Of a stretch of 64,000 nucleotides of DNA, positions 1,937-60,507 are shown piece after piece (the first letter of the stretch is position 1; the number at the start of each line of letters is the position of its first letter). The stretch is taken from NCBI GenBank assembly GCA_964595755.1, contig CAZQQZ010000001.1, forward strand, positions 22,228-86,227. The letters are read 5' to 3'. The notes under the pieces were generated by a model. It ran no database searches, was not told the DNA's origin, and was given only the letters and a program-made list of their open reading frames with translations. The translations under genes and the position numbers were made by a program. Source of the stretch: an uncultured Candidatus Saccharibacteria bacterium. Its GTDB lineage: Bacteria; Patescibacteriota; WWE3; CAZQQZ01.

Positions 1937-3124
1937 TTATAAAACAGGACTCATTTCTCTAAGTTTTTCTACTAAGTCGGGAAGGGTTTTAATGACATAA
2001 TCAACCTCCTCGCGAGTAGAATATTTCCCAAGAGACATCCTAATAGATCCGTGGGACCACGCCGGATTTATTCCCATCGCCGTTAGAACATGCGAAGGTG
2101 CCAAAGACTTAGAGGAACAAGCAGAGCCGGTAGATACGAAAATTCCTTCTTTATCCAAAAGCAAAAGGAGGGCTTCACCCTCGATCCCCTCAAAAACAAA
2201 GCTGGCGATGTGGGGGAGCCGATTCTCTGGGTGCCCCGTCAAATGAGAGCTCTTAACATTTTTTAGCACTCCAGTAATTAAGCGATCTCTAAGTTTTGTT
2301 AGAGCCTTCAAATTTGCCAATCTTTCTTTTTGGGAAATTTCAACCGCCTTTCCAAAACCGACGATACCGGCAACATTCTCCGTACCAGATCGAACCCCTT
2401 TTTCTTGGCCCCCGCCATCAATCAAGCGAGAAAATTTTGCCGTTTCTCTCGCATACAACGCCCCTACCCCCTTTGGACCGTATATTTTATGGGCAGAAAG
2501 AGATAGAAAATCAACCCCAAGAAAATCAACATTACAGTTTAAATAGTTAAAAGCTTGAACCGCGTCGGTGTGAAGGTACAAAGGTAAATCACCATCTTTT
2601 CTTTTTCCCCGCACGATTTTAACCATCGAACTTAGGGTTGCAATCGGTTCAATCGCCCCAACTTCATTATTTCCTAACATACAAGAAATCAAAACGGTAC
2701 TCGGCTCTATTTGAGTAAATATTCTTTTAGGGTCAATCTCCCCCGCTTTATTAGCTCCCGCGTAAATAATTTTAACTCCACGAACCCCAAGCTCCTTAGC
2801 GGTATTAATAACAGAAGGGTGTTCCACCTCAGAGACAATAATACTAATTTTCTTTCCTTCCTTTAAAAATCTTTCGGTAACTCCTTTAAGGCAAAGATTA
2901 TTTGATTCGGTTGCTCCGCTAGTAAAGGTTATCTCCGAGGGGTCCGCGCCAAGCGCCTTTGCCAAAATTCCACGGGAAAGCTCAATCGCCTGGCGAGCCT
3001 CTCGACCGAGAGAATGAGCTGACGATGGATTACCATATTTATCTTTCAAAAACGGTAACATTTCCATCATGACATTGGGATCGATTTGGGTAGTCGCGGA
3101 ATTGTCAAAGTAGATGTTATTCAT
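1937..3124 (-). CDS. iscS: cysteine desulfurase (IscS/NifS class V aminotransferase)
   Basis: PLP-lysine motif SLSAHKIYGPKGVGALY and N-terminal YFDNSATT. Start placed at the internal Met (MNNIYFD) because the longer ORF would overlap the histidine kinase gene. Confidence 0.8.
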   Translation of the reverse strand: MNNIYFDNSATTQIDPNVMMEMLPFLKDKYGNPSSAHSLGREARQAIELSRGILAKALGADPSEITFTSGATESNNLCLKGVTERFLKEGKKISIIVSEVEHPSVINTAKELGVRGVKIIYAGANKAGEIDPKRIFTQIEPSTVLISCMLGNNEVGAIEPIATLSSMVKIVRGKRKDGDLPLYLHTDAVQAFNYLNCNVDFLGVDFLSLSAHKIYGPKGVGALYARETAKFSRLIDGGGQEKGVRSGTENVAGIVGFGKAVEISQKERLANLKALTKLRDRLITGVLKNVKSSHLTGHPENRLPHIASFVFEGIEGEALLLLLDKEGIFVSTGSACSSKSLAPSHVLTAMGINPAWSHGSIRMSLGKYSTREEVDYVIKTLPDLVEKLREMSPVL

Positions 3125-3158
3125 AAGAAAATATTCTCTACCTTGGATTATAGCACTT

Positions 3159-4826
3159 TCAATTGAGGGGGAGAGTAAATACAAAACGAGCGCCTTTTCC
3201 AACTTCGCTTTCCACCCAGATACTGCCTCCGTGAGCCTCAACCACGCCTTTGGCTACGACCAACCCCAACCCCGTACCCTTACTTGAAGCCGCCGTTTTT
3301 ATCTGTTCAAATTTTGAAAAAAGTTTAGATTGATCGCTTTTTGCAATCCCAATTCCACTATCTCGAACATATACTTTGACAAAATCTCCTTCTGCGTACA
3401 CACCCACCTCAACGCTTCCTGTATCGGTGAACTTAATCGCGTTAGAAATCAGATTATTAAGGACCAAAGATAATTTCTCTTCATCAAAAGAAACTTTAAG
3501 ATCGTCCTTGGGAAGGTTGATATTCAGGGAAATTTTCTTTTCATCTGCCTTAACTTTAAAGAACTCCACCTCTTTTTTGATAAAGTCAGAAATGGAGGAA
3601 AGCTTTTTGAGTAGTTCAAACTTACCGGCTTCCATCTTGGCGATATTTAGCAAATTGCTAACCACCCCAAGCATAGAGTATGAGGATTGATTAATCTGAT
3701 CATACATTTTCTTGGCCATCTCAAGATCGAGCTGTTGTTGGCGCTTGATCAAGGTATCAGACATTCCGTGAATAACGGTCAGCGGCGCCCTTAGCTCATG
3801 CACCATCATATGGGTAAAATCTTCCCGCATTTTTTGAATTTCTTTGTCCTTGGTTATATCGTGAATCAAAAGAACCGCCCCAATCGTTTCTTCTCCTCTT
3901 TTTACCGGCGACGCGTACAACTGAAGATATTTATCATCCTTCAATATTTCTGAAATTTCAATTTTCTTAACCTTGACCGTTTCCTTCAAAATTTCTCTCA
4001 AATCTGCTTTTCCGCGAAGAGCCTCGTATACTTCAATAATTGAGAGCTCTTTCTGGGGGTCTAATCCAAGTAGTCTTTTGGCGGCAGGATTAACCACCGT
4101 AAGAAGCATATCAGAACTAACCATCACCACCCCGTCAGTCAAACTCTCAACCGCCGTTTCGATTTTCCCTTTTTCCTCGGCTAGCACAATTTGCAAATTT
4201 TCGACCGCCCTTGTTGCTCTTTTTGCTATTCGATAGAGAATTATCATATCTTCTTCGTCATAAGTGCTTTCAGAAACAGCAGCGATGGTCAAAACCCCAA
4301 GAACTTTACCAAAAATAACCAAGGGTACATTAAAAAAAGTTTTCGGAAGAAGCCCCGACGCCTGATCTACCATAAGGCCGGTAATCCGCTCATCAATGGG
4401 GAAATTATGAGCCTGCGGATCAGCCACCTCATAAAAACTGGCGAGCATCCTTTTTTTGACTTCAGAAATGTAGGCGGGGCCAACTCGATCGTTGGCATGA
4501 AGGCGGAGGGCAAGGCTTTTTTGGGTTTTCACCAGATACGAAGCGGAGCTATACTCAAACAACTCCCGTACAGAATCAATAATTATTTCCGCAATTTTTT
4601 GTATGTCCAAAGAATAGCTAATCCGGTCAGAAATCTCTTGGAGAACGGATATCTCAAACAGTTTTCTCTCCGCGTCGTCTTCCCGCCTTTTTAATGAAGA
4701 TAAAAGTCCCGTATAGAGGTCTTCCTTCCTTTTAGCCAAAAAAATCACCGAAAAACACAAAAAAAATAAGAAAAATATCAGAATATCCCGAGGATTAGTT
4801 GTTAAAAGAGGGTCTTGATTATACAT
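3159..4826 (-). CDS. sensor histidine kinase (N-terminal TM segment, GAF/PAS-like region, HisKA H-box, HATPase_c)
   Basis: H-box HELRAPLTVIHGM, followed by N-, G1- and G2-like boxes (LISNAIKFT, DSGIGI, GTGLGL). N-terminal hydrophobic segment. Confidence 0.75.
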   Translation of the reverse strand: MYNQDPLLTTNPRDILIFFLFFLCFSVIFLAKRKEDLYTGLLSSLKRREDDAERKLFEISVLQEISDRISYSLDIQKIAEIIIDSVRELFEYSSASYLVKTQKSLALRLHANDRVGPAYISEVKKRMLASFYEVADPQAHNFPIDERITGLMVDQASGLLPKTFFNVPLVIFGKVLGVLTIAAVSESTYDEEDMIILYRIAKRATRAVENLQIVLAEEKGKIETAVESLTDGVVMVSSDMLLTVVNPAAKRLLGLDPQKELSIIEVYEALRGKADLREILKETVKVKKIEISEILKDDKYLQLYASPVKRGEETIGAVLLIHDITKDKEIQKMREDFTHMMVHELRAPLTVIHGMSDTLIKRQQQLDLEMAKKMYDQINQSSYSMLGVVSNLLNIAKMEAGKFELLKKLSSISDFIKKEVEFFKVKADEKKISLNINLPKDDLKVSFDEEKLSLVLNNLISNAIKFTDTGSVEVGVYAEGDFVKVYVRDSGIGIAKSDQSKLFSKFEQIKTAASSKGTGLGLVVAKGVVEAHGGSIWVESEVGKGARFVFTLPLN

Positions 4827-4844: not shown

Positions 4845-5147
4845 TCACTTTTCTTTTTTAGAAACCCGAAATAACTCAAAGATATTCGTTAAGGATAGAA
4901 TTCCCATTAAACAGAAAAAAGTTTGCGAAAGCGGCACCAACCAAATATTCTCGACGCCAAAAACGCTTGGAATCAAAGCAGAAACCAAAAAACTCAAACC
5001 AATAAAGAAAATTGGCTGTCCGATTTTTCCAGTCCCAATTTTTAAAACAAAAAGCAAAGTTACCAAAAAGGCGATAAAGTTTACAACCGTAAACAACATC
5101 GCGTCCCCAACAAGCGGGCCGGTGTTAGCAATAATTGTTAATCCCAC
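4845..5147 (-). CDS. small hydrophobic membrane protein, function unknown
   Basis: 100-aa ORF with 3 predicted TM helices between the kinase and regulator genes; no recognisable motif. Confidence 0.3.
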   Translation of the reverse strand: MGLTIIANTGPLVGDAMLFTVVNFIAFLVTLLFVLKIGTGKIGQPIFFIGLSFLVSALIPSVFGVENIWLVPLSQTFFCLMGILSLTNIFELFRVSKKEK

Positions 5148-5912: not shown

Positions 5913-6656
5913 TTATTTGAGCATGGACAGATCTTCCATGATTTTTTCCTTGCTGACAACACTTAAACCCTTTTCTTCTTTGGCAGTTGTAAGCAGGAAA
6001 TCTCCCTCGGTAAGAATAAAACAAATCGAAGCTTCTTCCTTATCGCATTTCTCCGCCTGAAGTGCGGCGATAAATGGATTCGGGTCGGAAACATAGGCGT
6101 AAACTGTAGAAAAGGGGTGGGTTTGTTCGTAAAGAGAAAGCCCTCCCTCCATCGTAAAAGCGTAAGGCACCCCCCTTACCTTTGAGGTTTGATTGATTAT
6201 TTTCGCCACCGTTTTTAACGAATTAAAGGGACTTTTGCAATAAATTAATTTCCTATCTGAGCTCTCTAAAGACTCATTCTCCATATTAAGGCTATCCTCG
6301 TCCAAAAAAGTGTCCTTTTTTGGAGGGGCAAAAAATGTTGTCGGGTTCTTTGGCAAATCAAAAACCTCCGCCTCCTTAACTGATTGATCGATTTCCTTTA
6401 AATCCAGGGGTTCGTTTCCCGCTTCCGACTCGGTTTCTAAAACCTTTTCCCGCTCTTTCGCAGGGGCCTTAATCCTGCGTTTGCTTAAAAGCTCCTCAAT
6501 GTTCTTCTTCGAAAAACGATACCTCCCACTCATCAACTGAACATCAGGAACAATGTAACCCCGCTCAAGATAGCGATAAAGCGTCCTCAAGGTAACGTTT
6601 AAAATCGAAGCTACCTCATCCGAAGTATAAAGTTTGTCTTCTAATTCAATCATCAA
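5913..6656 (-). CDS. HTH_17 (MerR/excisionase-family helix-turn-helix) domain protein with C-terminal domain of unknown function
   Basis: N-terminal LYTSDEVASILNVTLRTLYRYLERGYI matches the excisionase/MerR-type HTH. The remaining ~170 aa have no recognisable motif. Confidence 0.5.
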   Translation of the reverse strand: MMIELEDKLYTSDEVASILNVTLRTLYRYLERGYIVPDVQLMSGRYRFSKKNIEELLSKRRIKAPAKEREKVLETESEAGNEPLDLKEIDQSVKEAEVFDLPKNPTTFFAPPKKDTFLDEDSLNMENESLESSDRKLIYCKSPFNSLKTVAKIINQTSKVRGVPYAFTMEGGLSLYEQTHPFSTVYAYVSDPNPFIAALQAEKCDKEEASICFILTEGDFLLTTAKEEKGLSVVSKEKIMEDLSMLK

Positions 6657-6739
6657 GGATCATAATAGAGGATTTGAGGGAAACGTCAATAACCTTGTGC
6701 GGGGTGGTCGTGACCACCCGAAGCTCGGAGAGCGTAGGG

Positions 6740-6814
6740 TGGTGCCGCCATGGGGAGTTGAACCCCACTTTACGGATTGAAGGCCCATTGTCCTAACCGA
6801 TAGACGATGGCGGC
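6740..6814 (-). tRNA. tRNA-Glu (anticodon TTC)
   Basis: The reverse complement folds as a cloverleaf: acceptor GCCGCCA/TGGCGGC, D-stem GTCT/GGAC, anticodon stem ATGGG/TCCGT, loop CCTTCAA, T-arm TGGGG-TTCAACT-CCCCA, discriminator A, CCA encoded. Confidence 0.8.
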
Positions 6815-7823: not shown

Positions 7824-7952
7824 GATTTTTAAATAAGTGGCCGTCAGGTTATATTTTACTGCCCTCCTTCGCCAAGGCTTCGGAGGACACTCCTAGCTCT
7901 AATCTCGCTTCGTATGTGGCTGTAAGCCACCCGAAGCTCGAAGAGCGTAGGG

Positions 7953-8027
7953 TGGTGGGTCCAGTGGGATTCGAACCCACAACTAACGCCTTAAAAGGGC
8001 GCTACTCTACCGTTGAGTTATAGACCC
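7953..8027 (-). tRNA. tRNA-Lys (anticodon TTT)
   Basis: The reverse complement is GGGTCTATAACTCAACGGTAGAGTAGCGCCCTTTTAAGGCGTTAGTTGTGGGTTCGAATCCCACTGGACCCACCA. All four stems pair, the loop is CTTTTAA, and CCA is encoded. Confidence 0.8.
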
Positions 8028-8819: not shown

Positions 8820-10892
8820 TCACCGAGCGCTAAACTCGATTTTATTTCCCTGAAGATTAACAACCACTTCCCCTCCATCTTTATACTCCCCATCAATAAT
8901 CATATCCGAAATTTGATTTTCGATTTCCCTTTGAATTAGCCTTCTTAAGGGTCTCGCGCCAAATTCTTCGGAGTAACCCTCTTTGGCCAAATAATCCCGC
9001 ACTTTTTCGGAGATATTGATTTTTATCCCCCGCTCGTTTAGTAATTTCTCTGTTTTTTGAATTTCAAAATCAACAATTTGGCGGATTTCTTTTTGGTTAA
9101 GTGACCGGAAAATGACAATCTCATCCACCCGGTTTAGAAATTCCGGTCTAAAGGCATGTTTAAGCGTTTCCGTAAGTTCCGCTTTTAGTTCCTCATACTT
9201 TTTGACCGCACTTCTTCCTTTTCCAGATACAAACCCCAGTTCCGGCTTATTTAACATTTCCGTCCCCAAGTTACTGGTCATAATAATAATTGTGTTTTTG
9301 AAATCAACTACTCGCCCTTGGGCATCTGACAACCTCCCATCTTCCATTATTTGAAGCAGCATATTAAAAACATCCGGATGGGCCTTTTCGATCTCGTCCA
9401 AAAGGATTACGGAAAATGGTTTTCTCCTTACGATTTCTGTCAATTGCCCACCCTCATCATATCCAATGTATCCCGGCGGCGCCCCCACCATCCGAGAAAC
9501 GGTGTGCTTTTCCATATACTCACTCATATCCAATCGAACAAGCATCTCCTCACTTCCGTACAAAACTTCCGCCAGGGCCTTAGAAAGCTCTGTTTTACCA
9601 ACTCCCGTCGGACCTAAAAAGATGAAGGAACCGATCGGTCGATTTGGATTTTTAAGGCCCGCCCTCGCTCGTCTGATCGCTTCGGAAACTGTTCTTACCG
9701 CCTCATCCTGACCAACGATTCTTTGATGGAGTAAATTTTCCAAGTTAAGAAGCTTCTCTCTCTCTCCAAGAGAAAGATCATCCAAGGGAATCCCGGTCGC
9801 TTTGGAAACAATCTTCGCGATATCTCTCCTTGTAACTTCCGGGACCCGCTCAAGCTTAGTTCTTGCCCAAAGATTTGTCAGTTCCTTTTCTATTCCCCTA
9901 AGCTCCTCAATTTTCGCGAACACTTTAGTGCGCTCCTCCGGGTCTCCTTGGGAAAGTTTCTTCTCGTTTTCTAAAATTTCTTCTCGAATGTCTTTGAGAT
10001 TTTGCGGCTCCTTAACTTGAGCTAAACGAACCTCCGCCCCTGCCTCATCGATCAAATCGATCGCTTTATCGGGAAGAAAACGGTCTGAAATATAACGATC
10101 CGAAAGCTTCGCCGCCGCAACCAGGGCCTCATCTGTTATTCTTACTTTATGATGTTTTTCATATCTTGAACGAAGCCCCTCAAGAATGGCGACCGTTTGA
10201 TCAATTGTCGGTTCACTGACAAGAATAGGCTGAAATCTTCTTTCCAAGGCGGCATCTTTCTCGATGTATCTTCGATATTCATCAATCGTCGTCGCCCCTA
10301 CCATCTGAAGTTCTCCTCGAGCAAGGGCTGGTTTTAGGATATTAGCCGCATCGATGGCTCCTTGAGCCGCCCCCGCTCCGACAACGGTGTGAAGCTCATC
10401 CACAAAAAGAATTATTTGCCCTTTGGCGTTTGTCACTTCTTCAATTACTTTTTTTAGCCTTTCTTCAAATTGACCTCGATGAACAGAGCCAGCAACAAGG
10501 GCGGAAATATCTAAATCCACCACTCTTTTCCCCTGAAGAATTTCTGGAACTTGGGCATCCACTATCCTCTGGGCCAATCCAGCGGCAATTGCCGTTTTCC
10601 CAACCCCCGGATCCCCAATTAAAACCGGGTTATTTTTTGTCCTTCGGCAAAGAATATGGACCAGTCGGTTTATCTCGTCATCTCGGCCAATTACCGGGTC
10701 TAGCTTTCCCTCACCCGCAAGTTTTGTAAGATCTCGACCAAAGTGATCTAAATGAGAAGTCTGACCAGCGCTTCTTCTAAGGTTCTCAAAACATTCCTCG
10801 CAAAGGTTAACGTAAACTCTCTGACCGTTGATAATTTCCGTTGTCGTTATGGAAGCGGGTCTTACCCCGCAGTTTTGGCATATTACAGACAT
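8820..10892 (-). CDS. clpC: ATP-dependent Clp protease ATP-binding subunit (ClpC/ClpE type, two AAA+ modules, N-terminal zinc ribbon)
   Basis: N-terminal CQNCG...CEEC zinc ribbon (ClpE-like). Walker A GDPGVGKT (D1) and GPTGVGKT (D2). ClpA/B-family signature stretches. No Clp_N repeats, and no clpP nearby. Confidence 0.85.
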
Positions 10893-20719: not shown

Positions 20720-20791
20720 TACAAATGTAGCTTAGTGGCCCGCCTCGCCGAAACGGCGAGTCGAGGCTGGTAGAGCATTTTAAACCTAAAT

Positions 20792-32910: not shown

Positions 32911-34731
32911 ATGGCAAAAGAAAACATTAGAAATGTCGCGGTTATCGCCCACGTTGATCACGGCAAAACCACTTTAATAGACGCTCTTCTTAAGCAAACT
33001 CATGTTTTTCGCGACAACGAAAAGGAAATGAGCGAACAATGTATTCTCGATAGTTCGGATCTTGAACGAGAAAAAGGAATTACCATCTTGGCCAAAAACT
33101 GCACCGTTTTTTATAAAGGCATAAAAATTAACATTATTGATACTCCAGGTCACGCCGATTTTTCGGGGGAAGTAGAACGCACGCTTGGAATGGCGGACGG
33201 AGCCCTTCTTATTATCGACGCCCAAGAAGGGCCAATGCCCCAAACCAGATTTGTGCTTAAAAAAGCCCTTGAACTAGGATTAAAAATCATTGTCGTTATC
33301 AATAAAATTGACAAGCAGTTTGCCGATGTCGACCGAGCAATTTCCAAAACAAGCGATTTATTTTTGGATATCGCAACAGATGAAACTCAAATAGATTTTC
33401 CCGTTCTTTACGCCGTCGGTCGGGCAGGGGCGGTTTATAATGAAGTTCCGAGTGATCTTAACGAGCCGCAAAATGCCCTACAGCTTTTGGATAAAATAAT
33501 CGATTACGTTCCCGCGCCAAAAGGTGAATCTTCTGGCCTTTTTAAAATGGTTGTTTCCTCTCTCGATCATGATATTCATCTAGGACAAATCATTCTTGGA
33601 AAAATTTATTCCGGTACGATTTCTGAAGGCCAAGAAGTTATCCTTGCCCAAAAGCCAGAAACAAAATTAAAGATTGAACGGGTAATGGTTAATTCTGGAC
33701 TAACGAGAATAAAAACAGAAAAAGCTGAAGCGGGCGATATTGTCGCTCTCTCCGGAATTCAAGAGGTGGAAATCGGAATGACTTTAACCGACCCAAAAGA
33801 GCCTTCCCCACTACCCGCGCCAAAAATCTCGGAACCAACCCTTCATATGAGCCTTGGACCTAATACTTCCCCATTCTCTGGGAAAGAGGGGCAATTTTGC
33901 ACCGCCAGGCAACTTGAGGAAAGACTAAACCGGGAACTCAAGAAAAATTTAAGCTTAAGGGTAGAAAAAATGGACAATAATAAATTTAAAATTTCGGGAC
34001 GGGGAGAACTACATCTAGCAATTCTGCTTGAAACAATGAGACGAGAAGGCTACGAAATGGAAGTTGGGAAACCAGAAGTCATCGTTAAAAATATCGACGG
34101 AGCCGACTCTGAGCCTGTCGAAGAAGTTGATATTATCGTTCCGGAAATGCATGTTGGGACAATTAATCGAGAGCTTGGAGCAAGGGGCGGTAGTTTAATT
34201 AAAATGAGCCCATTAACGGAAACAGAAATGGAATTTATTTATGAAATTCCAACTAGGGCTTTAATTGGATTAAGGAGTCTGCTTCTAACCCAAACAAAAG
34301 GGACGGTGGTTTTTAATTCAATTGTGACCGGATATGCTCCTTTAGGAAAGCCTTTACAAAAACTCCGCCAAGGTGCGTTGGTTTCCGCAGAGACCGGACC
34401 CGCCCTTTCTTATGGTCTGGAAAACGCCCAAGGCCGGGGAATTACTTTCGTAGACCCTGGAATTCAAGTATACGAAGGAATGATTATTGGTCTTGGGGCT
34501 AAGGAAAATGACATTGACATCAATGTCTGTAAAGGCAAGCATTTGACTAACATTCGCGCCGCTTCCGCCGATAAAATGATCCAACTAGCCCCCTCAACCA
34601 TTTTGAGTTTGGAGCAATCGCTTGATTTCTTAGAGAACGATGAACTTCTCGAAATTACCCCAAAGTCATTGAGGCTCCGTAAAAAATTTCTAACTGACTT
34701 AGACAGAAGACGCGCCAAAAGAGCAGGCTAA
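32911..34731 (+). CDS. typA: translational GTPase TypA/BipA
   Basis: [18 protein letters not shown]1 motif and DTPGHADF. 606 aa with an EF-G-like domain order. Confidence 0.9.
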
Positions 34732-34736
34732 TTTAT

Positions 34737-34772
34737 GTACGAAAACATCGACGGTCGTCGATAAAACCGTAC
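34737..34772. repeat. 36-bp nested palindromic element, copy A (GTACG-AAAAC-ATCGAC-GGTC-GTCGAT-AAAAC-CGTAC)
   Basis: Seen directly. The second copy, at 35610-35645, is identical at 34 of 36 positions. Confidence 0.8.
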
Positions 34773-34827
34773 ATCGTTATTTTGGGGAAACAGACACTCT
34801 GGTAACTTCTGGTACTTTAATTAAGAG

Positions 34828-35583
34828 TCAAAGATTTACTTCGATTTTTTTTCGTATTTCGTCGAATATTTTCCTTGCTTCTCTGCCTCCCCAATCAGCA
34901 GGCAAAATTTCGTCAGGAAGATATGGGTCTTCTTTCAGTATTTCTAAATATTGACCAAAAAATGAAGTATTAACTACCGATGAATTCACGTTTATATTCT
35001 TTTTGCAATTTTCTATGAGGAGGGAGTATCTTTCAGAAATCGCAGGAAGATCCCACGCCTTCATAGCTATTTCTTCATTCGAGTAAGATCCGACTTTCTC
35101 CGCTTCAAAAAACAAAACTCCTATTTCGATATTTTCCGTTTTAAACAATTCTTCTATCTCGTCAATAACTGGATGCGGGGATATCCAAACGCTTTCTTGA
35201 AGTAAACCAAACCCAAGTTGGCGAAGATGATTTCTAACACGTTCTCGCGCATTTCTACTTTTTTCTTCTATGTCAAAAATCACAATTCTCCACTTCTTAT
35301 CCCATGGTTTTTTATTAATCTTGTTAATATTTATTGTTCTGTTTAGAGTCTTAAGGCCTAAACTAGTTATTTTATAACGAATCTCTCCCTCTTGAGATAC
35401 TTCTTTTTCTATTTCACCAACAGACACTAACCTTCTTACCGCCTGCTCTACTTTCCGATCCTTCTTACCCATTCTCAGACCAAGAATATCGTGAGATCTT
35501 TTATTGTAAAGACCAGAAACATAACTCCAATAATCAACCGTTTCCGCAAGTTCTATTAGGATTTTATCTTTTGTTCTCATCAC
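34828..35583 (-). CDS. PaaX-family-like transcriptional regulator (winged HTH plus PaaX_C-like domain)
   Basis: The central motif WDKKWRIVIFDIEEKSRNARERVRNHLRQLGFGLLQESVWISP matches the PaaX-family signature (W.G.W.lv.fdiPE..R..R..lr..L...GfG.lq.SVwisP). The N-terminal region is winged-helix-like. Confidence 0.55.
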   Translation of the reverse strand: MMRTKDKILIELAETVDYWSYVSGLYNKRSHDILGLRMGKKDRKVEQAVRRLVSVGEIEKEVSQEGEIRYKITSLGLKTLNRTININKINKKPWDKKWRIVIFDIEEKSRNARERVRNHLRQLGFGLLQESVWISPHPVIDEIEELFKTENIEIGVLFFEAEKVGSYSNEEIAMKAWDLPAISERYSLLIENCKKNINVNSSVVNTSFFGQYLEILKEDPYLPDEILPADWGGREARKIFDEIRKKIEVNL

Positions 35584-35609
35584 TCTATATGTTACTTCAT
35601 TTTATTAGT

Positions 35610-35645
35610 GTACGAAATTATCGACGGTCGTCGATAAAACCGTAC
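35610..35645. repeat. 36-bp nested palindromic element, copy B
   Basis: gtacgaaattatcgacggtcgtcgataaaaccgtac. It lies 27 bp upstream of the PaaX-like start codon and just after the nrdD stop. Confidence 0.8.
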
Positions 35646-35683
35646 ATAATCCTGAGGGAAAATTGCGCCGACCGATATCAACC

Positions 35684-48139: not shown

Positions 48140-48167
48140 TGTAGCTGCGACATTTATGTCGCCAATT
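48140..48167. repeat. short palindromic version of the intergenic repeat family (tgtagctgcga-catttatgt-cgccaatt)
   Basis: Shares both termini (TGTAGCTGCG and CGCCAATT) with the full repeats; the internal gcgacat/atgtcgc is a 7-bp inverted repeat. Confidence 0.6.
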
Positions 48168-48202
48168 GTATTTATTTGAAATTAACCTAATCGACTAACA
48201 TT

Positions 48203-48261
48203 AATTGGCGAGGCACAGCCAGCCTCGCCGAACGTGAGTCTAGGCGGGCCTCGCAGCTACA
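48203..48261. repeat. intergenic repeat copy 1 (reverse orientation relative to copies 2 and 3)
   Basis: Its reverse complement is tgtagctgcgaggcccgcctagactcacgttcggcgaggctggctgtgcctcgccaatt, which aligns with 54987-55042 and 56608-56658. It contains the 8-bp stem GGCGAGGC/GCCTCGCC. Confidence 0.7.
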
Positions 48262-54986: not shown

Positions 54987-55042
54987 TGTAGCTGCGGGGC
55001 CCGCCTAGACTCGTGGGCGAGGCTGGCTGTGACCCGCCAATT
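54987..55042. repeat. intergenic repeat copy 2
   Basis: tgtagctgcggggcccgcctagactcgtgggcgaggctggctgtgacccgccaatt, between the GT4 gene start and the methyltransferase gene end. Confidence 0.7.
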
Positions 55043-56607: not shown

Positions 56608-56658
56608 TGTAGCTGTGAGACCCGCCTAGCAGTCGAGGCTGATCCTATCTCGCCAATT
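56608..56658. repeat. intergenic repeat copy 3 (shorter, internally deleted)
   Basis: tgtagctgtgagacccgcctagcagtcgaggctgatcctatctcgccaatt. Confidence 0.65.
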
Positions 56659-56670
56659 TCTTGTGGAATT

Positions 56671-56692
56671 ATTGTGACAATATTGTGACAAT
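56671..56692. repeat. tandem direct repeat ATTGTGACAAT x2
   Basis: Two perfect 11-bp units, preceded by the degenerate ttgtggaatt. A related ATTATTGTGAC occurs at 60326-60337. Confidence 0.6.
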
Positions 56693-56707
56693 AACGATAG
56701 TATGAAA

Positions 56708-56731
56708 GATTACTTATTCGAATAAGTAATC
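56708..56731. repeat. perfect 24-bp palindrome GATTACTTATTCGAATAAGTAATC (left boundary of the RM cassette)
   Basis: Exactly self-complementary; 30 bp downstream of the RM gene stop. The second copy, at 60219-60242, has one mismatch. Confidence 0.85.
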
Positions 56732-56760
56732 TCGAAAAAGACCCACCCAATTAAATGTTG

Positions 56761-59700
56761 TTATTTTGATAATTGCTCATAAAATTTATTTTTCAGGCAT
56801 TGGGAATTAACGAATTTGGCATCCGAAACTTTGTCTTTAGGAATGTCAATGTTGAAGTAAAGACAAAAGACGAGGTTGTCTATAAAACCTTTAATCCCCT
56901 TTTGCTTATCAAAATCAATGATCGGCAATGATTTTAAATCTTCCAGTAGTATTTGCTTTCTTTCAAAATCTAATTTTTGGTCACCGTAATTCCCGTCAAT
57001 TATCTTTTTGATCAGATCAAGATTATCCTTAATTTGTAGCTTTATCTCTTTGTCATCTTTTATTAAAACCAAACAGCCATCTTTTGTTATAACGTTGTCA
57101 AACTTCTGAACCAACACGTTTGAAAAATCAACAAAATCTGAAAGAGTTAACTCCTCTAAACCGAGTAATTGGCTAGTCTGTTTAATAATTTCGTTCTTGA
57201 TTAGTTGATTTCTTTCATCAATCTTTGGCACACGAACAAACTCTTTTACAGAAGTGGTTGAAATAAGAAAGTTTTTTTCATTTTCGCTTCTTAGGAGGGA
57301 ATTAAGAATTAGAGTTATGGATGAGGAGTTGAGCAAAGCAAAGAGATATAAAACCTCTTTTTCGTTGTCACTTCCTATTGCACAGATTTGATTTCTCGCC
57401 CAGATAACTGGCTGAGTGGTAAAGAAAAACCTACTAGGATTGGCGTATGACCACATCAGTTTAAATTTACTATCTAGCAGGTTATACCCTTGGTTGGCCT
57501 GCCTCAACTTTATGGTATATGACGAATTACCTAAGCGAATGTTTGGCCAATACCCCTTAGACCCTTTAATTGTCCAGAGTGAACTATTTAATTTGGGGTA
57601 GTAATAAAATTCCTCGTTCGGCTCTTCTTTCAACAGCTTACTTTCATCAATGCTATACCCACTATCAAAAAAGAATTTAGTTTTGAATTGGAATTTAGAA
57701 AATGTATGTTCGTAATAGATTGAAATATCCTCAGTAGTTCTCTTGTACTCGTTATAAAAGTCAAGAAATGCTTTGTTTTGCTTAATAAAGTTCCAATTAG
57801 TCACATTTCGTAAAAACTCAGATTGCAATACCATCTTTTTATTGATTTTTTTATTGGCTGAAATGTTTTCTAGCGCGTGCCCTACCTCATCGTCTGAATT
57901 CGCATAGTTGATTATCTCGACATGGTGAAGTGTAGGTGGTAGTTCTCTCCTTATAGCAAAAATCAGGCTCGAGGTAGCTATTGGCTTATTCTGCCTTAAT
58001 CCTCTACCCACAAACATCTTGCCGCTAAATGTAATTATTTTCTCAATCGTGGTAAATTTAGCTAAATGATAGCGAAGAACGTCTAGATCTCCAGCGGTTA
58101 AAAGTGTTTGCGGAATGATATAGCAAAGTCTACCATTATCTTTAAGAAGGGCAAAACCTAATGCAATGAAAAAAGCATAAAGATTGGGGTTAGGACGATA
58201 CTTTTTAGAATTGTCAGGAACACTATGAAGATTCACACCGTAAATATTATTGAGTTTTATTTTGCCACGCTTCATTAACTCAAAGGTCAAAACACTCTGT
58301 TTTGCGCACTCGTTATATCCCACATAAGGCGGGTTACCTATTACAAAGTCAAAACGCCTTCTTGGGCATTCCTGCTGGTTTTCAAGGCTTTTTTTCATTT
58401 CCTCCAAATCGCTTTCCTCTCTGACGTAACTTTTGTATCCTAAATCTAATTTTTGAGAAAAAAGAGGAATTTGATTGGGGGAACGTGCTTTCTTTTGAAA
58501 TTCAACTGTCTGGTCATTAAAAGTATTGCGTAAAGCAGTGTCCATAAACTCAGAAATACTATCTCTAGTGAGGAAAACCTTAATTTTTTTATCAACGGGG
58601 TTGTTATATTTCTCGTTAATTATTTGAGGTAACATTCTCATTAAGATATTCATTTCGGCTAGGTATAGTGGGAACTCGGCAATGTCCAACCCAAAAATAT
58701 TATCATTGATAATTTTCTCGACCTGTTCAGATTTTTCAAAGGAACTGTTGCCAAATGCTTTAAGAACAGAGTCAACAGCGCTGTAGAGGAAAGTCCCGCT
58801 TCCGCAAGATGGATCAATTAATGAAATGCTATTTTTGTCGTCCTGATATCTTTTTTGAAGAGCCTCCGGGGTAAATCCGACTTGTTGTAGCATAAAGTTA
58901 ACAACTGCCGGATCGGTAAAGTATTGCCCCTTTTTTGTGTCCTCATACAACTCCTTAAGATAGTTTTCGTAAATATAACCAAAAATCTCATTCTGGATGT
59001 TAGCGAAGTTATATTTTTTAATAAAAACGAATATATCAAGCCACGGGGCAACATCGTGAAGTTCGTTCTTGGGTTGCCTGTACAAGGCAAGCAAAATCTG
59101 ATTGATGAAATCCTGCTCCTTCTTGAAAGGTCTATAAATATTTTGAGAGATTTTATTTGAGATACCTTCAATAACACCTAAAATCTTACCGTATTGTTTA
59201 ACTTTGAGGCATTCGTGAATCGCTTTAACAATATCTGCAAATTCCTGAACAAAATTATCAAACCCGTTATCAACCAAAGTTTTATACAAAATGAACTGGA
59301 TAACATAAGCGTAAGTAATCTCGACTGCCTTTTTCTCTCTATCTCTTCTGTCCAATCCCTCAAAATATCCCTCAATCTGAAGCTTGTTTTTAAAACTTCT
59401 TATTAGTTTGGTAATATCGTCAAAAAATATCTGCCTATTTTCTTCAACAGGAAGTCTTTCCTCTTTCAAAAGAGTGAGTTGGCTTTGAGGTTCAAAAAAA
59501 GTTAGGTAATAAAACTCCGGCTTGACGTATTCCTTCCAAAATTCAAGGAAAAGATCGGTTTCATTAAAAATTTGGTCTAAGCTAAACTCACGATAAATGT
59601 TGTTGTTGTAAAAACGCCAAGTATAGCCATCCGTTAAAATCCCGTAATGTTTATCGAAATCTTTTTGGTAAGCGATAAGTTGTTTTATACCCGCTTGAAT

Positions 59701-60024
59701 ATTACCGTAACACTCTGCTTCCAAAGGAATAATAATCTCTGGACTAATATAAACAACAAAATCTGCCTTTCGACCTTCCTTTGCTTTATTTTCGTGAATA
59801 TACTCATTTTTTCTTGATTCCAATTTTCTTGAAAGAGAGCCTTCCCTTAAATCAAAGAGCTCTTCGCTTTCAAAAAAAGCTTTGACGAAACTATGAACAC
59901 CCGAGCCAAGCTCTTGGTTTTTATAATATTCCTTTTCTTTACTCCACTTACCTTTTAACTCTTTGATGCTCATATTCCTGTTTCTTTCTTGAAATTGCCT
60001 TTGCCATCGGATTAAGGTTTCCAA
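56761..60024 (-). CDS. Type IIG/IIL restriction-modification enzyme, MmeI-like fused endonuclease-methyltransferase-TRD
   Basis: 1087 aa. Gamma-class N6-adenine MTase motif I LIDPSCGSGTFL and motif IV FDFVIGNPPYVG, matching MmeI FFDPACGCGNFL and ILGNPPFVG. N-terminal GRKADFVVYISPEIIIPLEAECYG aligns with the MmeI PD-ExK region GFVDLFWPGILLIEMK. Long C-terminal TRD-like region. Confidence 0.7.
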   Translation of the reverse strand: METLIRWQRQFQERNRNMSIKELKGKWSKEKEYYKNQELGSGVHSFVKAFFESEELFDLREGSLSRKLESRKNEYIHENKAKEGRKADFVVYISPEIIIPLEAECYGNIQAGIKQLIAYQKDFDKHYGILTDGYTWRFYNNNIYREFSLDQIFNETDLFLEFWKEYVKPEFYYLTFFEPQSQLTLLKEERLPVEENRQIFFDDITKLIRSFKNKLQIEGYFEGLDRRDREKKAVEITYAYVIQFILYKTLVDNGFDNFVQEFADIVKAIHECLKVKQYGKILGVIEGISNKISQNIYRPFKKEQDFINQILLALYRQPKNELHDVAPWLDIFVFIKKYNFANIQNEIFGYIYENYLKELYEDTKKGQYFTDPAVVNFMLQQVGFTPEALQKRYQDDKNSISLIDPSCGSGTFLYSAVDSVLKAFGNSSFEKSEQVEKIINDNIFGLDIAEFPLYLAEMNILMRMLPQIINEKYNNPVDKKIKVFLTRDSISEFMDTALRNTFNDQTVEFQKKARSPNQIPLFSQKLDLGYKSYVREESDLEEMKKSLENQQECPRRRFDFVIGNPPYVGYNECAKQSVLTFELMKRGKIKLNNIYGVNLHSVPDNSKKYRPNPNLYAFFIALGFALLKDNGRLCYIIPQTLLTAGDLDVLRYHLAKFTTIEKIITFSGKMFVGRGLRQNKPIATSSLIFAIRRELPPTLHHVEIINYANSDDEVGHALENISANKKINKKMVLQSEFLRNVTNWNFIKQNKAFLDFYNEYKRTTEDISIYYEHTFSKFQFKTKFFFDSGYSIDESKLLKEEPNEEFYYYPKLNSSLWTIKGSKGYWPNIRLGNSSYTIKLRQANQGYNLLDSKFKLMWSYANPSRFFFTTQPVIWARNQICAIGSDNEKEVLYLFALLNSSSITLILNSLLRSENEKNFLISTTSVKEFVRVPKIDERNQLIKNEIIKQTSQLLGLEELTLSDFVDFSNVLVQKFDNVITKDGCLVLIKDDKEIKLQIKDNLDLIKKIIDGNYGDQKLDFERKQILLEDLKSLPIIDFDKQKGIKGFIDNLVFCLYFNIDIPKDKVSDAKFVNSQCLKNKFYEQLSK

Positions 60025-60212: not shown

Positions 60213-60218
60213 TTTAAA

Positions 60219-60242
60219 GATTACGTATTCGAATAAGTAATC
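60219..60242. promoter_or_regulatory. 24-bp palindrome GATTACGTATTCGAATAAGTAATC immediately upstream of the AbrB-like gene; candidate operator
   Basis: Lies 7-25 bp upstream of the candidate start codons of the AbrB-like gene; one mismatch from the perfect copy at 56708-56731. Confidence 0.5.
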
Positions 60243-60507
60243 CAGAAAAAACGCTTTATCTTAAGAACAATCACTCCCAGTCTAACAAAATATGTAACTT
60301 AGAAGGGGTATTTATTTCGATAATGATTATTGTGACGTCCCGACGGTTGCTTCAATTTCGAAAAAAGTATCAAAATTGACTTTTCGCTGGTGCCCTCCTG
60401 ATTTTTCGGGGCTACTTATCTAGCCTCTCAAACCTACTTAAGCGACTCCAAACAATCATGAAACAGTTTTGGTGTGTTGAAATTTATGATAATTATCGAA
60501 ATATCTG

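Follow-up and report, generated by a model that had tools for sequence, protein, structure and literature searches.

A dimer-forming family of GTAG-tagged palindromic repeats, probably of the REP type, in a WWE3 bacterium

Structured repeats at gene-block boundaries

The DNA analysed here, referred to below as the window, is a stretch of 64,000 nucleotides from contig CAZQQZ010000001.1 (GenBank assembly GCA_964595755.1) of an uncultured WWE3 bacterium, a member of the Candidate Phyla Radiation (CPR). Between 39 and 60 kb, an array of genes on the minus strand is punctuated by a family of short, structured intergenic repeats, which form the subject of this study. As assigned with Pfam, the array runs from a restriction-modification (R-M) gene of MmeI/Eco57I-like type (56761-60024) past a repeat unit termed el3, two Methyltransf_11/25 genes (MT1 and MT2), a second unit (el2), two glycosyltransferase (GT) genes and genes for Bac_transf, DUF4012, RecO and glycyl-tRNA synthetase (GlyRS, gene glyQS) to a third unit (el1) paired with a short one, followed by MraZ, RsmH and the dcw cluster. 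Every intergenic gap of at least 50 bp in this array holds a unit, and each unit falls on the edge of a block of genes. An initial annotation, prepared from the sequence alone, had proposed three full copies and one short copy; all four lie at the positions it gave, they are intergenic and of mixed orientation as it had described, and the neighbours it named (GlyRS, MraZ and two methyltransferase genes) are borne out by Pfam. The features of the family in the window are as follows.

48140-48167, plus strand: short unit of 28 nt, with a TGTAGCT head, a GCGACA/TGTCGC stem, a 4-nt loop and a CAATT tail
48168-48202, no strand: AT-rich spacer of dimer D1, 35 nt
48203-48261, minus strand: long unit el1 of 59 nt, which begins 21 nt past the glyQS stop and is sense with transcription
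48140-48261: dimer D1, 122 bp, consisting of el1 and the inverted short unit with the GTAG ends outward (REPIN/BIME-like 'HH' dimer; the terms are explained below)
54987-55042, plus strand: long unit el2 of 56 nt, a singleton that runs antisense to the genes on either side
56608-56658, plus strand: long unit el3 of 51 nt, a singleton that has lost part of its core and likewise runs antisense to its neighbours
20726-20780, plus strand: divergent copy between tRNA-Gly(CCC) and tRNA-Thr(CGT), whose spacer measures 72 nt

The four canonical units agree exactly in their termini, TGTAGCTG.G…CGCCAATT. In the 64 kb there are only four instances of the octamer TGTAGCTG, all of them within these units, and a search for TGTAGCTGNG-N(8-38)-CGCCAATT retrieves the three plus-strand units against an expectation of 0.00 from 100 dinucleotide shuffles; el1, on the minus strand, has a gap one base over the N(8-38) limit and was recovered by a mismatch-tolerant scan. 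No further copy emerged from the 64 kb when up to two terminal mismatches were tolerated. All units terminate in …CGCCA, which resembles a tRNA 3' end. The long units are far richer in GC (0.64, 0.68 and 0.55) than the window (0.40) or the rest of the glyQS-mraZ gap (0.31), as had been proposed for all copies; the short unit, at 0.43, is not.

Each long unit stands between co-directional genes, at distances of 6, 21 and 102 nt from the upstream stop codon: el2 follows the MT2 stop by 6 nt and precedes the start of the next GT gene by 40 nt, el1 is placed behind glyQS as listed, and el3 lies 102 nt after the R-M gene stop and 59 nt before the MT1 start. The short unit, the inverted partner of el1 in D1, precedes the start of mraZ by 96 nt. 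At 56671-56692, 12 nt from el3, an 11-mer is perfectly repeated in tandem (ATTGTGACAAT x2), and this sequence is missing from the orthologous spacer of L121, a related genome introduced below.

The divergent copy in the tRNA spacer was found with a profile built from el1-3 alone, which matches 20726-20772 (E=0.0015). It retains the TGTAGCT head and the CCCGCCT…CGAGGCTGG core and lacks the CGCCAATT tail. Its flanks read as a tRNA D-arm (GCTT-AGTGG^TA-GAGC) split by the core: within 20720-20791, the core (CCCGCCTCGCCGAAACGGCGAGTCGAGGCTGG) interrupts an otherwise canonical D-arm (GTAGCTTAGTGG^TAGAGCA), with TGG on either side of the insert. The core may have struck a leftover 5' part of a tRNA, or these flanks may hint at where the TGTAGCT head came from. 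A tRNA origin was considered and dropped, since a tRNA model gives no match over the spacer copy.

Folding and covariation

All units follow one plan, consisting of an unpaired (T)GTAGCT head, a GC-rich stem of 5-7 bp, a loop and a CAATT tail, and they fall into two size classes. In the short form (28-29 nt), the loop measures 4-7 nt; in the long form (51-59 nt), it is a conserved, GC-rich nested hairpin of ~31-33 nt (CCCGCCTAGACTC…GGCGAGGCTGGCTGT). In el1, for instance, the TGTAGCT head and CAATT tail enclose a basal stem (GCGAGGC/GCCTCGC), which in turn encloses this core. The GTAG is present in nine of nine units of the window genome, further members of which are described below, and in four of the five short units of relatives, the remaining one carrying CGAG.

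The stems covary in both size classes. In the short form, represented by seven units drawn from four loci and organisms, 97.9% of stem cells are paired and 4/7 pairs show changes on both sides; none of 500 shuffles reached this covariation score, and pairing fell to 28-64% when the partner column was slid. The inner arms of the short form read, for example, GCGAC/GTCGC, GCGGGAT/ATCCCGC and GCGAGAC/GTCTCGC. In the basal stem of the long form, changes on both sides occur in three of seven pairs, again reached by 0/500 shuffles, with 87% of cells paired compared to 27-49% with the partner column slid. Here the stems are GCGAGGC/GCCTCGC, GCGGG/CCCGC and GTGAGA/TCTCGC, that of a relative is GCGACAC/GTGTCGC, and the core they enclose is nearly invariant. 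A covariance model of the short form (R1) scores the unit at 48140-48167 with 40.6 bits (fold of -7.8 kcal/mol, z -2.3) and recovers a unit on which it was not trained, at 6656-6685 of the related locus L145, with 37 bits.

Single-stranded D1 forms one long hairpin, whose outer stem (TGTAGCTGCGA/TCGCAGCTACA) measures 11 bp and whose inner stem (CGCCAATT/AATTGGCG) measures 9 bp; this substantiates the inverted structure of ~120 bp that had been noticed between glyQS and mraZ. The fold z-scores of D1 are -4.2 and -4.5 on its two strands, and those of the three dimers found in the genome range from -4.2 to -5.1. Single long units have fold energies that are ordinary for their composition (z -1.7 to +0.2), and fold energy reveals no clear strand preference, both strands folding about equally well.

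Further copies in the source genome

The population sampled by the window is that of WWE3 assembly GCA_002774235.1, one of the metagenome-assembled genomes (MAGs) from Crystal Geyser; proteins encoded in the window are identical to WWE3 proteins of these MAGs, GCA_002774235.1 among others. DUF4012 and the compactness of the gene order are in keeping with a CPR organism. Contig PEYV01000029.1 otherwise matches the window and ends inside the R-M gene (~59457), while the window runs ~4.5 kb further; the window is therefore a different, longer assembly of the same population. A further locus of GCA_002774235.1, contig PEYV01000049.1 (L142; the entries L137-L144 represent this locus, including other samples), carries two additional dimers with GTAG ends outward and the same architecture as D1.

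2023-2136 of PEYV01000049.1: dimer D2, a long unit, a 26-nt spacer and an inverted short unit
3712-3816 of PEYV01000049.1: second dimer, a long unit, a 17-nt spacer and an inverted short unit

Along this contig, a PaaX-like gene is followed by D2, a GTAG-palindrome terminator and a convergent Xer-like gene, which places D2 between convergent genes; the second dimer lies ~500 nt beyond the Xer-like gene. The window genome thus contains three dimers, with spacers of 35, 26 and 17 nt and with halves of unequal length, and the pair at 48140-48261 is one instance of a recurring arrangement, found twice more on a second contig. The gene enclosed by the two directly oriented dimers, which are ~1.6 kb apart, encodes a Xer-family tyrosine recombinase of 333 aa (2199-3200, minus strand). 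The protein is full length, and keeps the C-terminal HxLRH and GH…Y motifs; its score as an integron integrase, 127 bits, falls well short of the cut-off of 265. In some population contigs, a C-to-T single-nucleotide polymorphism (SNP) coincides with a gene call of 317 aa, 16 residues shorter at the C-terminus.

Altogether, the window genome holds nine units at six loci in ~92 kb, a biased sample in that one locus was found through its copy. The 18 kb flanking the window contain no further copy. Four independent metagenome contigs end 2-3 nt after el1 and one ends within it, so that the unit coincides with recurrent assembly breaks. The initial annotation had reckoned with the prospect that the family might have neither further copies nor covariation; both were found.

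Pattern scans of public collections returned none of the known copies of the source population except one mis-binned contig, and consequently give no genome-wide count. When one genome for each of 185,579 species was scanned with the core pattern, eight matches were obtained, approximately the number expected by chance, and one of these is real. It lies on PFLI01000111.1 (L106), a 2.5-kb contig labelled Candidatus Roizmanbacteria CG_4_10_14_0_8_um_filter_33_9, which ends at the repeat, 22 nt past a long unit. The contig does not represent a second host, because its sequence agrees at 99.95% with PEYV01000049.1, from the WWE3 assembly already named; judged by this identity, it is almost certainly a mis-binned WWE3 contig. 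Transfer between phyla had been considered, as the L106 unit is 97% identical and the PaaX-like protein only 40% identical to its window paralogue, and was dropped for the same reason. A first pattern scan of genome contigs gave 0 matches. Among viral contigs, the termini pattern matched 85 times, in each case as a single coding or chance occurrence, and the core pattern three times by chance; all 10 matches among metagenome contigs were likewise chance, and blastn against phage and plasmid collections found none.

Presence and absence of units in relatives

The closest relatives within reach of the analysis, with protein identities of ~73-78%, come from Logan sample SRR22388171 (L121, L145 and L146). 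In L121, a short unit (TGTAGGGGCGGGAT-CTT-ATCCCGCC) follows MT2 at the site orthologous to el2 and in the same orientation, and no unit is present at the site orthologous to el3. A mobile methyltransferase cassette bounded by el3 and el2 was rejected on these grounds: L121 has the order MT1-MT2-GT with only the short unit after MT2 and none before MT1. The earlier remark that these two copies bracket the two S-adenosylmethionine-dependent methyltransferase genes is accordingly right as to position and does not extend to a cassette, the gene order being kept in L121 without long units.

In L145, a short unit occupies the site orthologous to the dimer between paaX and xer, and the end of pyrG carries a tandem of a short and a long unit (6656-6747). 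The long core of this tandem is almost identical to that of the window, in a relative whose proteins are ~78% identical. The last ~13 codons of pyrG are encoded by the short unit, so the repeat has extended the pyrG coding region in L145; the stop codon is the TAG in the GTAG head of the next (long) unit. In L146, two short units lie 80-150 nt upstream of a gene for an IS200/IS605-type Y1 transposase (142 aa, with HUH and Y motifs), the tnpA having inserted directly beside them.

More distant relatives (L114, L117 and L147, GlyRS 69-71% identical) keep the glyQS-mraZ synteny and have no family unit. In L114 and L117, ordinary hairpin terminators follow glyQS, in the place taken by el1 in the window. 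In L147 (69% identity), glyQS ends in CTCGTAGCAACGAGACAGCTAC at 4936-4960, its TAG stop lying inside a GTAGC…GCTAC mini-palindrome that occupies the place of the window's TGTAGCTG…CAGCTACA dimer. This mini-palindrome may be a minimal precursor of the repeat, a remnant of it, or chance.

A probable REP-type family

CPR genomes are small (~1 Mb) and poor in repeats. Most cataloguing of repetitive extragenic palindromes (REPs), and of the hairpin-forming REP doublets termed REPINs, has concerned Proteobacteria, with a few other phyla besides. The variety known as GTAG-tagged REPs is characterized by an unpaired GTAG, stems of 6-9 bp with complementary changes and, in some cases, long self-complementary loops (Di Nocera, De Gregorio & Rocco 2013, PMC3733652). 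Dimers of such REPs are spaced 20-100 bp apart, mostly with GTAG on the outside, and lie near the 3' end of the upstream open reading frame (ORF) between co-directional or convergent genes, where they sometimes supply a TAG stop (PMC3733652). Two kinds are of particular relevance: GTAG-1/2, in which a spacer sets the tag off from the stem and the opposite end bears a conserved motif, and GTAG-3/14, with long self-complementary loops (PMC3733652).

The units described here resemble these elements, most closely GTAG-1/2 and GTAG-3/14, in nearly every respect. Their stem-loop shows complementary changes, an unpaired GTAG marks one end of the palindrome, the stem is short and GC-rich, and the loops are variable or nested. 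They are extragenic, follow closely on an upstream ORF, have neighbours that are co-directional or convergent, and in one case supply a TAG stop. Spaced by 17-35 bp and with GTAG outside, two inverted units fold into one hairpin in each of three dimers, as is the case for REPINs and for BIMEs (bacterial interspersed mosaic elements), where an inverted pair with a short spacer forms one long hairpin (Bertels & Rainey 2011, PMC3116915; PMC3333891); here, too, the pair appears to be the repeated unit. On balance, we regard it as likely that the units are REPs of the GTAG-tagged type in a WWE3 bacterium and that their dimers are REPIN/BIME-like. The family works like REP/REPIN and probably is one. 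This assignment draws on the repeats themselves, the covarying stem, the dimers, the positions just 3' of ORFs and the presence in sister genomes, all of which are observed directly.

Once placed, the units would be transcribed with the upstream gene and, as hairpins at the 3' end, would terminate the transcript or shield it, a role that is established for REPs in E. coli. Such a role would explain why the places of long units are taken in relatives by other GC-rich hairpins, namely terminator-like ones after glyQS and the short family unit of L121 after MT2. As to their spread, the units may have been moved by a HUH/Y1 transposase that recognises hairpins in single-stranded DNA, either RAYT-like (REP-associated tyrosine transposase) or IS200-like, or they may be relics of such spread. 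For TnpAREP, the REP-associated Y1 transposase of E. coli, binding and cleavage need both GTAG and the hairpin (Ton-Hoang et al. 2012, PMC3333891).

The family also differs from its models. Compared to GTAG-tagged REPs, it resides in a small-genome CPR host at apparently low copy number, has a conserved core of ~31-33 nt, a 7-nt head and a 5-nt tail, and no RAYT was found with it. Unlike REPINs and BIMEs, its dimers have unequal halves (59 vs 28-29 nt), singletons exist, and a Xer-like gene between two dimers takes the place of a flanked RAYT. The ends of IS200/IS605 elements and of palindrome-associated transposable elements (PATEs) share with the units subterminal hairpins, a short single-stranded motif 5' of the stem and the absence of target duplication, and an IS200-type tnpA lies beside two units in L146; the units themselves, however, bound no transposase gene. 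Miniature inverted-repeat transposable elements (MITEs) are matched by the 106-122 bp dimers in their 11-bp terminal inverted repeats, intergenic location and assembly breaks, but not in target-site duplication or a related full-length insertion sequence as parent, neither of which was found, and single units stand free. Among the three readings in the initial annotation, that of a REP- or MITE-like element is the one borne out, on account of the GTAG head, covarying stem, dimers, 3' sites, assembly breaks and relatives.

Several observations weigh against the assignment to REPs. Copy number appears low and local: the 82 kb sampled without bias hold five units at four loci, and four canonical units lie within 8.5 kb. 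No insertion polymorphism occurs among ~20 population contigs, which differ by only one SNP, no target-site signature is visible in five flanks compared (no duplication), and no clean empty site marking an insertion boundary was found; the orthology of el2 and the L121 unit between species points to vertical persistence and not to recent movement. No RAYT or any other Y1 transposase was detected in the ~92 kb visible of the window genome (Pfam on ORFs of the window and the extra loci, gene tables and tblastn), which does not imply absence from the whole genome, and a single-copy RAYT gene flanked by REPs, the arrangement termed REPtron, is likewise missing from the ~92 kb examined. The Y1 gene of L146 belongs with IS200 TnpA (99 bits in NCBIfam, as opposed to 20 bits against a cut-off of 80 for RAYT), and this tnpA element (9970-10510) has its own matching left and right hairpins (GCCACGGSCTCCTGSCCGTGG), unrelated to the units. 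In size, the short form falls inside the 20-40 bp range of classical REPs, while the long form exceeds it and can be accommodated only if the core counts as a complex loop of the GTAG-3/14 kind. Finally, the strand of el2 and el3 that is transcribed with the genes is the CTAC strand, on which the U·G pair of the el3 stem becomes a C·A mismatch.

The alternative that survives best, although we consider it unlikely, is that the units are ordinary terminator or insulator hairpins of operon boundaries, alike through local duplication or gene conversion, with neither a transposase nor mobility. It would account for the occupancy of each larger gap at a gene-block boundary, the clustering of the canonical copies and the lack of insertion polymorphism. 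It also agrees with the GC-rich hairpins of relatives at two of the same junctions, and with a simple terminator scan, which picked out a hairpin within el1 as well as the short unit, each trailed by a weak T-rich tail. Termination, however, needs neither the TGTAGCT head nor the CAATT tail, yet these persist across copies and species, and el2 and el3 are followed in gene sense by A-rich sequence without a U-tract. The recurrence of the dimer on a different contig and the tRNA-spacer copy 27 kb away speak for spread beyond the immediate neighbourhood, and the near-identity of the core in a relative with ~78% protein identity needs a sequence-specific constraint. What remains of the terminator or insulator reading from the initial annotation is a plausible host-level effect of such elements, in view of the other hairpins that relatives have behind glyQS and MT2; it does not account for a head and tail that are conserved yet single-stranded, or for the missing U-tract in two of three orientations.

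More doubtful still is the idea that the Xer-like recombinase on PEYV01000049.1 uses the units as its recognition or recombination sites, either dif-like, with the short form read as 7+5 / 6-7 / 5+5, or folded as a single strand like integron attC or CTX-phage attP. The gene of this full-length protein has two of the three dimers, in direct orientation, on its flanks, and the orthologous xer of L145 again has three GTAG hairpins on its 3' side. The short form can be viewed as two arms around an AT-rich centre of 6-7 bp, and the constant termini, the variable structured middle and the conservation of stem structure over sequence recall attC. Yet the inner arms covary, a signature of intrastrand pairing rather than of a conserved double-strand half-site, and with a loop or centre of 3 to ~45 nt the units are too variable in length for a double-strand, dif-like Xer site; an informal reading by eye found no similarity to dif consensus sequences. 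For the attC variant, the recombinase scores far below the integron-integrase cut-off, no integron integrase, attI or cassette array is present, orientations are mixed, and the MT1-MT2 pair is ancestral and not a cassette. The conserved synteny of paaX and xer marks the latter as a resident chromosomal gene.

It is very improbable that the units are multi-copy genes for an independently transcribed small structured RNA of ~28-60 nt, possibly related to tRNA, as had also been suggested: for all that they form GC-rich islands in AT-rich spacers, include G·U pairs on the GTAG strand in their covarying stems, conserve the core across species, end in …CGCCA and have one copy in a tRNA operon in tRNA orientation with D-arm-like flanks, they match no Rfam family at gathering score or even E<=10, share no promoter-like motif upstream, lie sense or antisense to their neighbours, fold singly no better than their composition predicts and about equally on both strands, form the inverted dimers and assembly breaks typical of DNA repeats, and have a long-form core pattern with no other carrier in the 185,579-species scan.

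If the units are REPs, as we favour, the occurrence of a GTAG-tagged, covarying, dimer-forming family in WWE3 would extend the host range of this type of element; the literature searched contained no published description of REP- or REPIN-type repeats in WWE3 or the wider CPR. With a handful of copies, two size classes and orthologous copies in sister species, the family offers a compact system for studying the origin of REPs, switching between short and long forms and the takeover of terminator sites. In practical terms, the units account for repeated breaks between contigs of the Crystal Geyser MAGs and for the mis-binning of at least one contig there. Should these genomes contain no RAYT, the family would become a test case for RAYT-independent maintenance of REPs. 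A more speculative extension, to which we attach little probability, holds that a REP family is kept in a reduced CPR genome without RAYT and is serviced by, or co-evolves with, the resident Xer-like recombinase, amounting to a 'REPtron' built on a different class of recombinase; the invariant core would then be a specific protein- or RNA-binding module and the core in the tRNA spacer an independently inserting module.

Other repeats and remnants in the window

Further repeats occur at several places in the window. The R-M gene is flanked by two copies of a perfect, AT-rich palindrome of 35 nt (GATTACTTATTCGAATAAGTAATC), at 56705-56739 and 60216-60250. The same GATTACTTATTCGAATAAGTAATC palindrome is kept upstream of MT1 in L121, where the slot holds another R-M system (an N6_N4 methylase, an unknown ORF and a D12 methylase) and, in addition, a MazE-like ORF. 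From this comparison, the R-M slot looks like a swap-prone defence locus bounded by palindromes.

A nested palindrome of 44 nt (ATGTACG…TCGACGGTCGTCGA…CGTACAT) is present in two copies with 91% identity, at 34731-34774 and 35604-35647. The copies flank a gene for a PaaX-like regulator (34828-35583) adjoining nrdD and are candidate operator sites. In addition, a repeat of 52 nt with 85% identity (6714-6765 and 7927-7978) spans the 3' ends of tRNA-Glu and tRNA-Lys together with a downstream hairpin (CCACCC…GGGTGG) that pairs with the CCA end of the tRNA; it may represent a shared processing or terminator signal. Adjoining tRNA-Val, the segment 25132-26394 contains a truncated ORF of 134 aa for an N6_N4 DNA methylase together with a 158-aa fragment of an IS256/Mutator-family transposase, and by this content is a decayed remnant of a mobile element.

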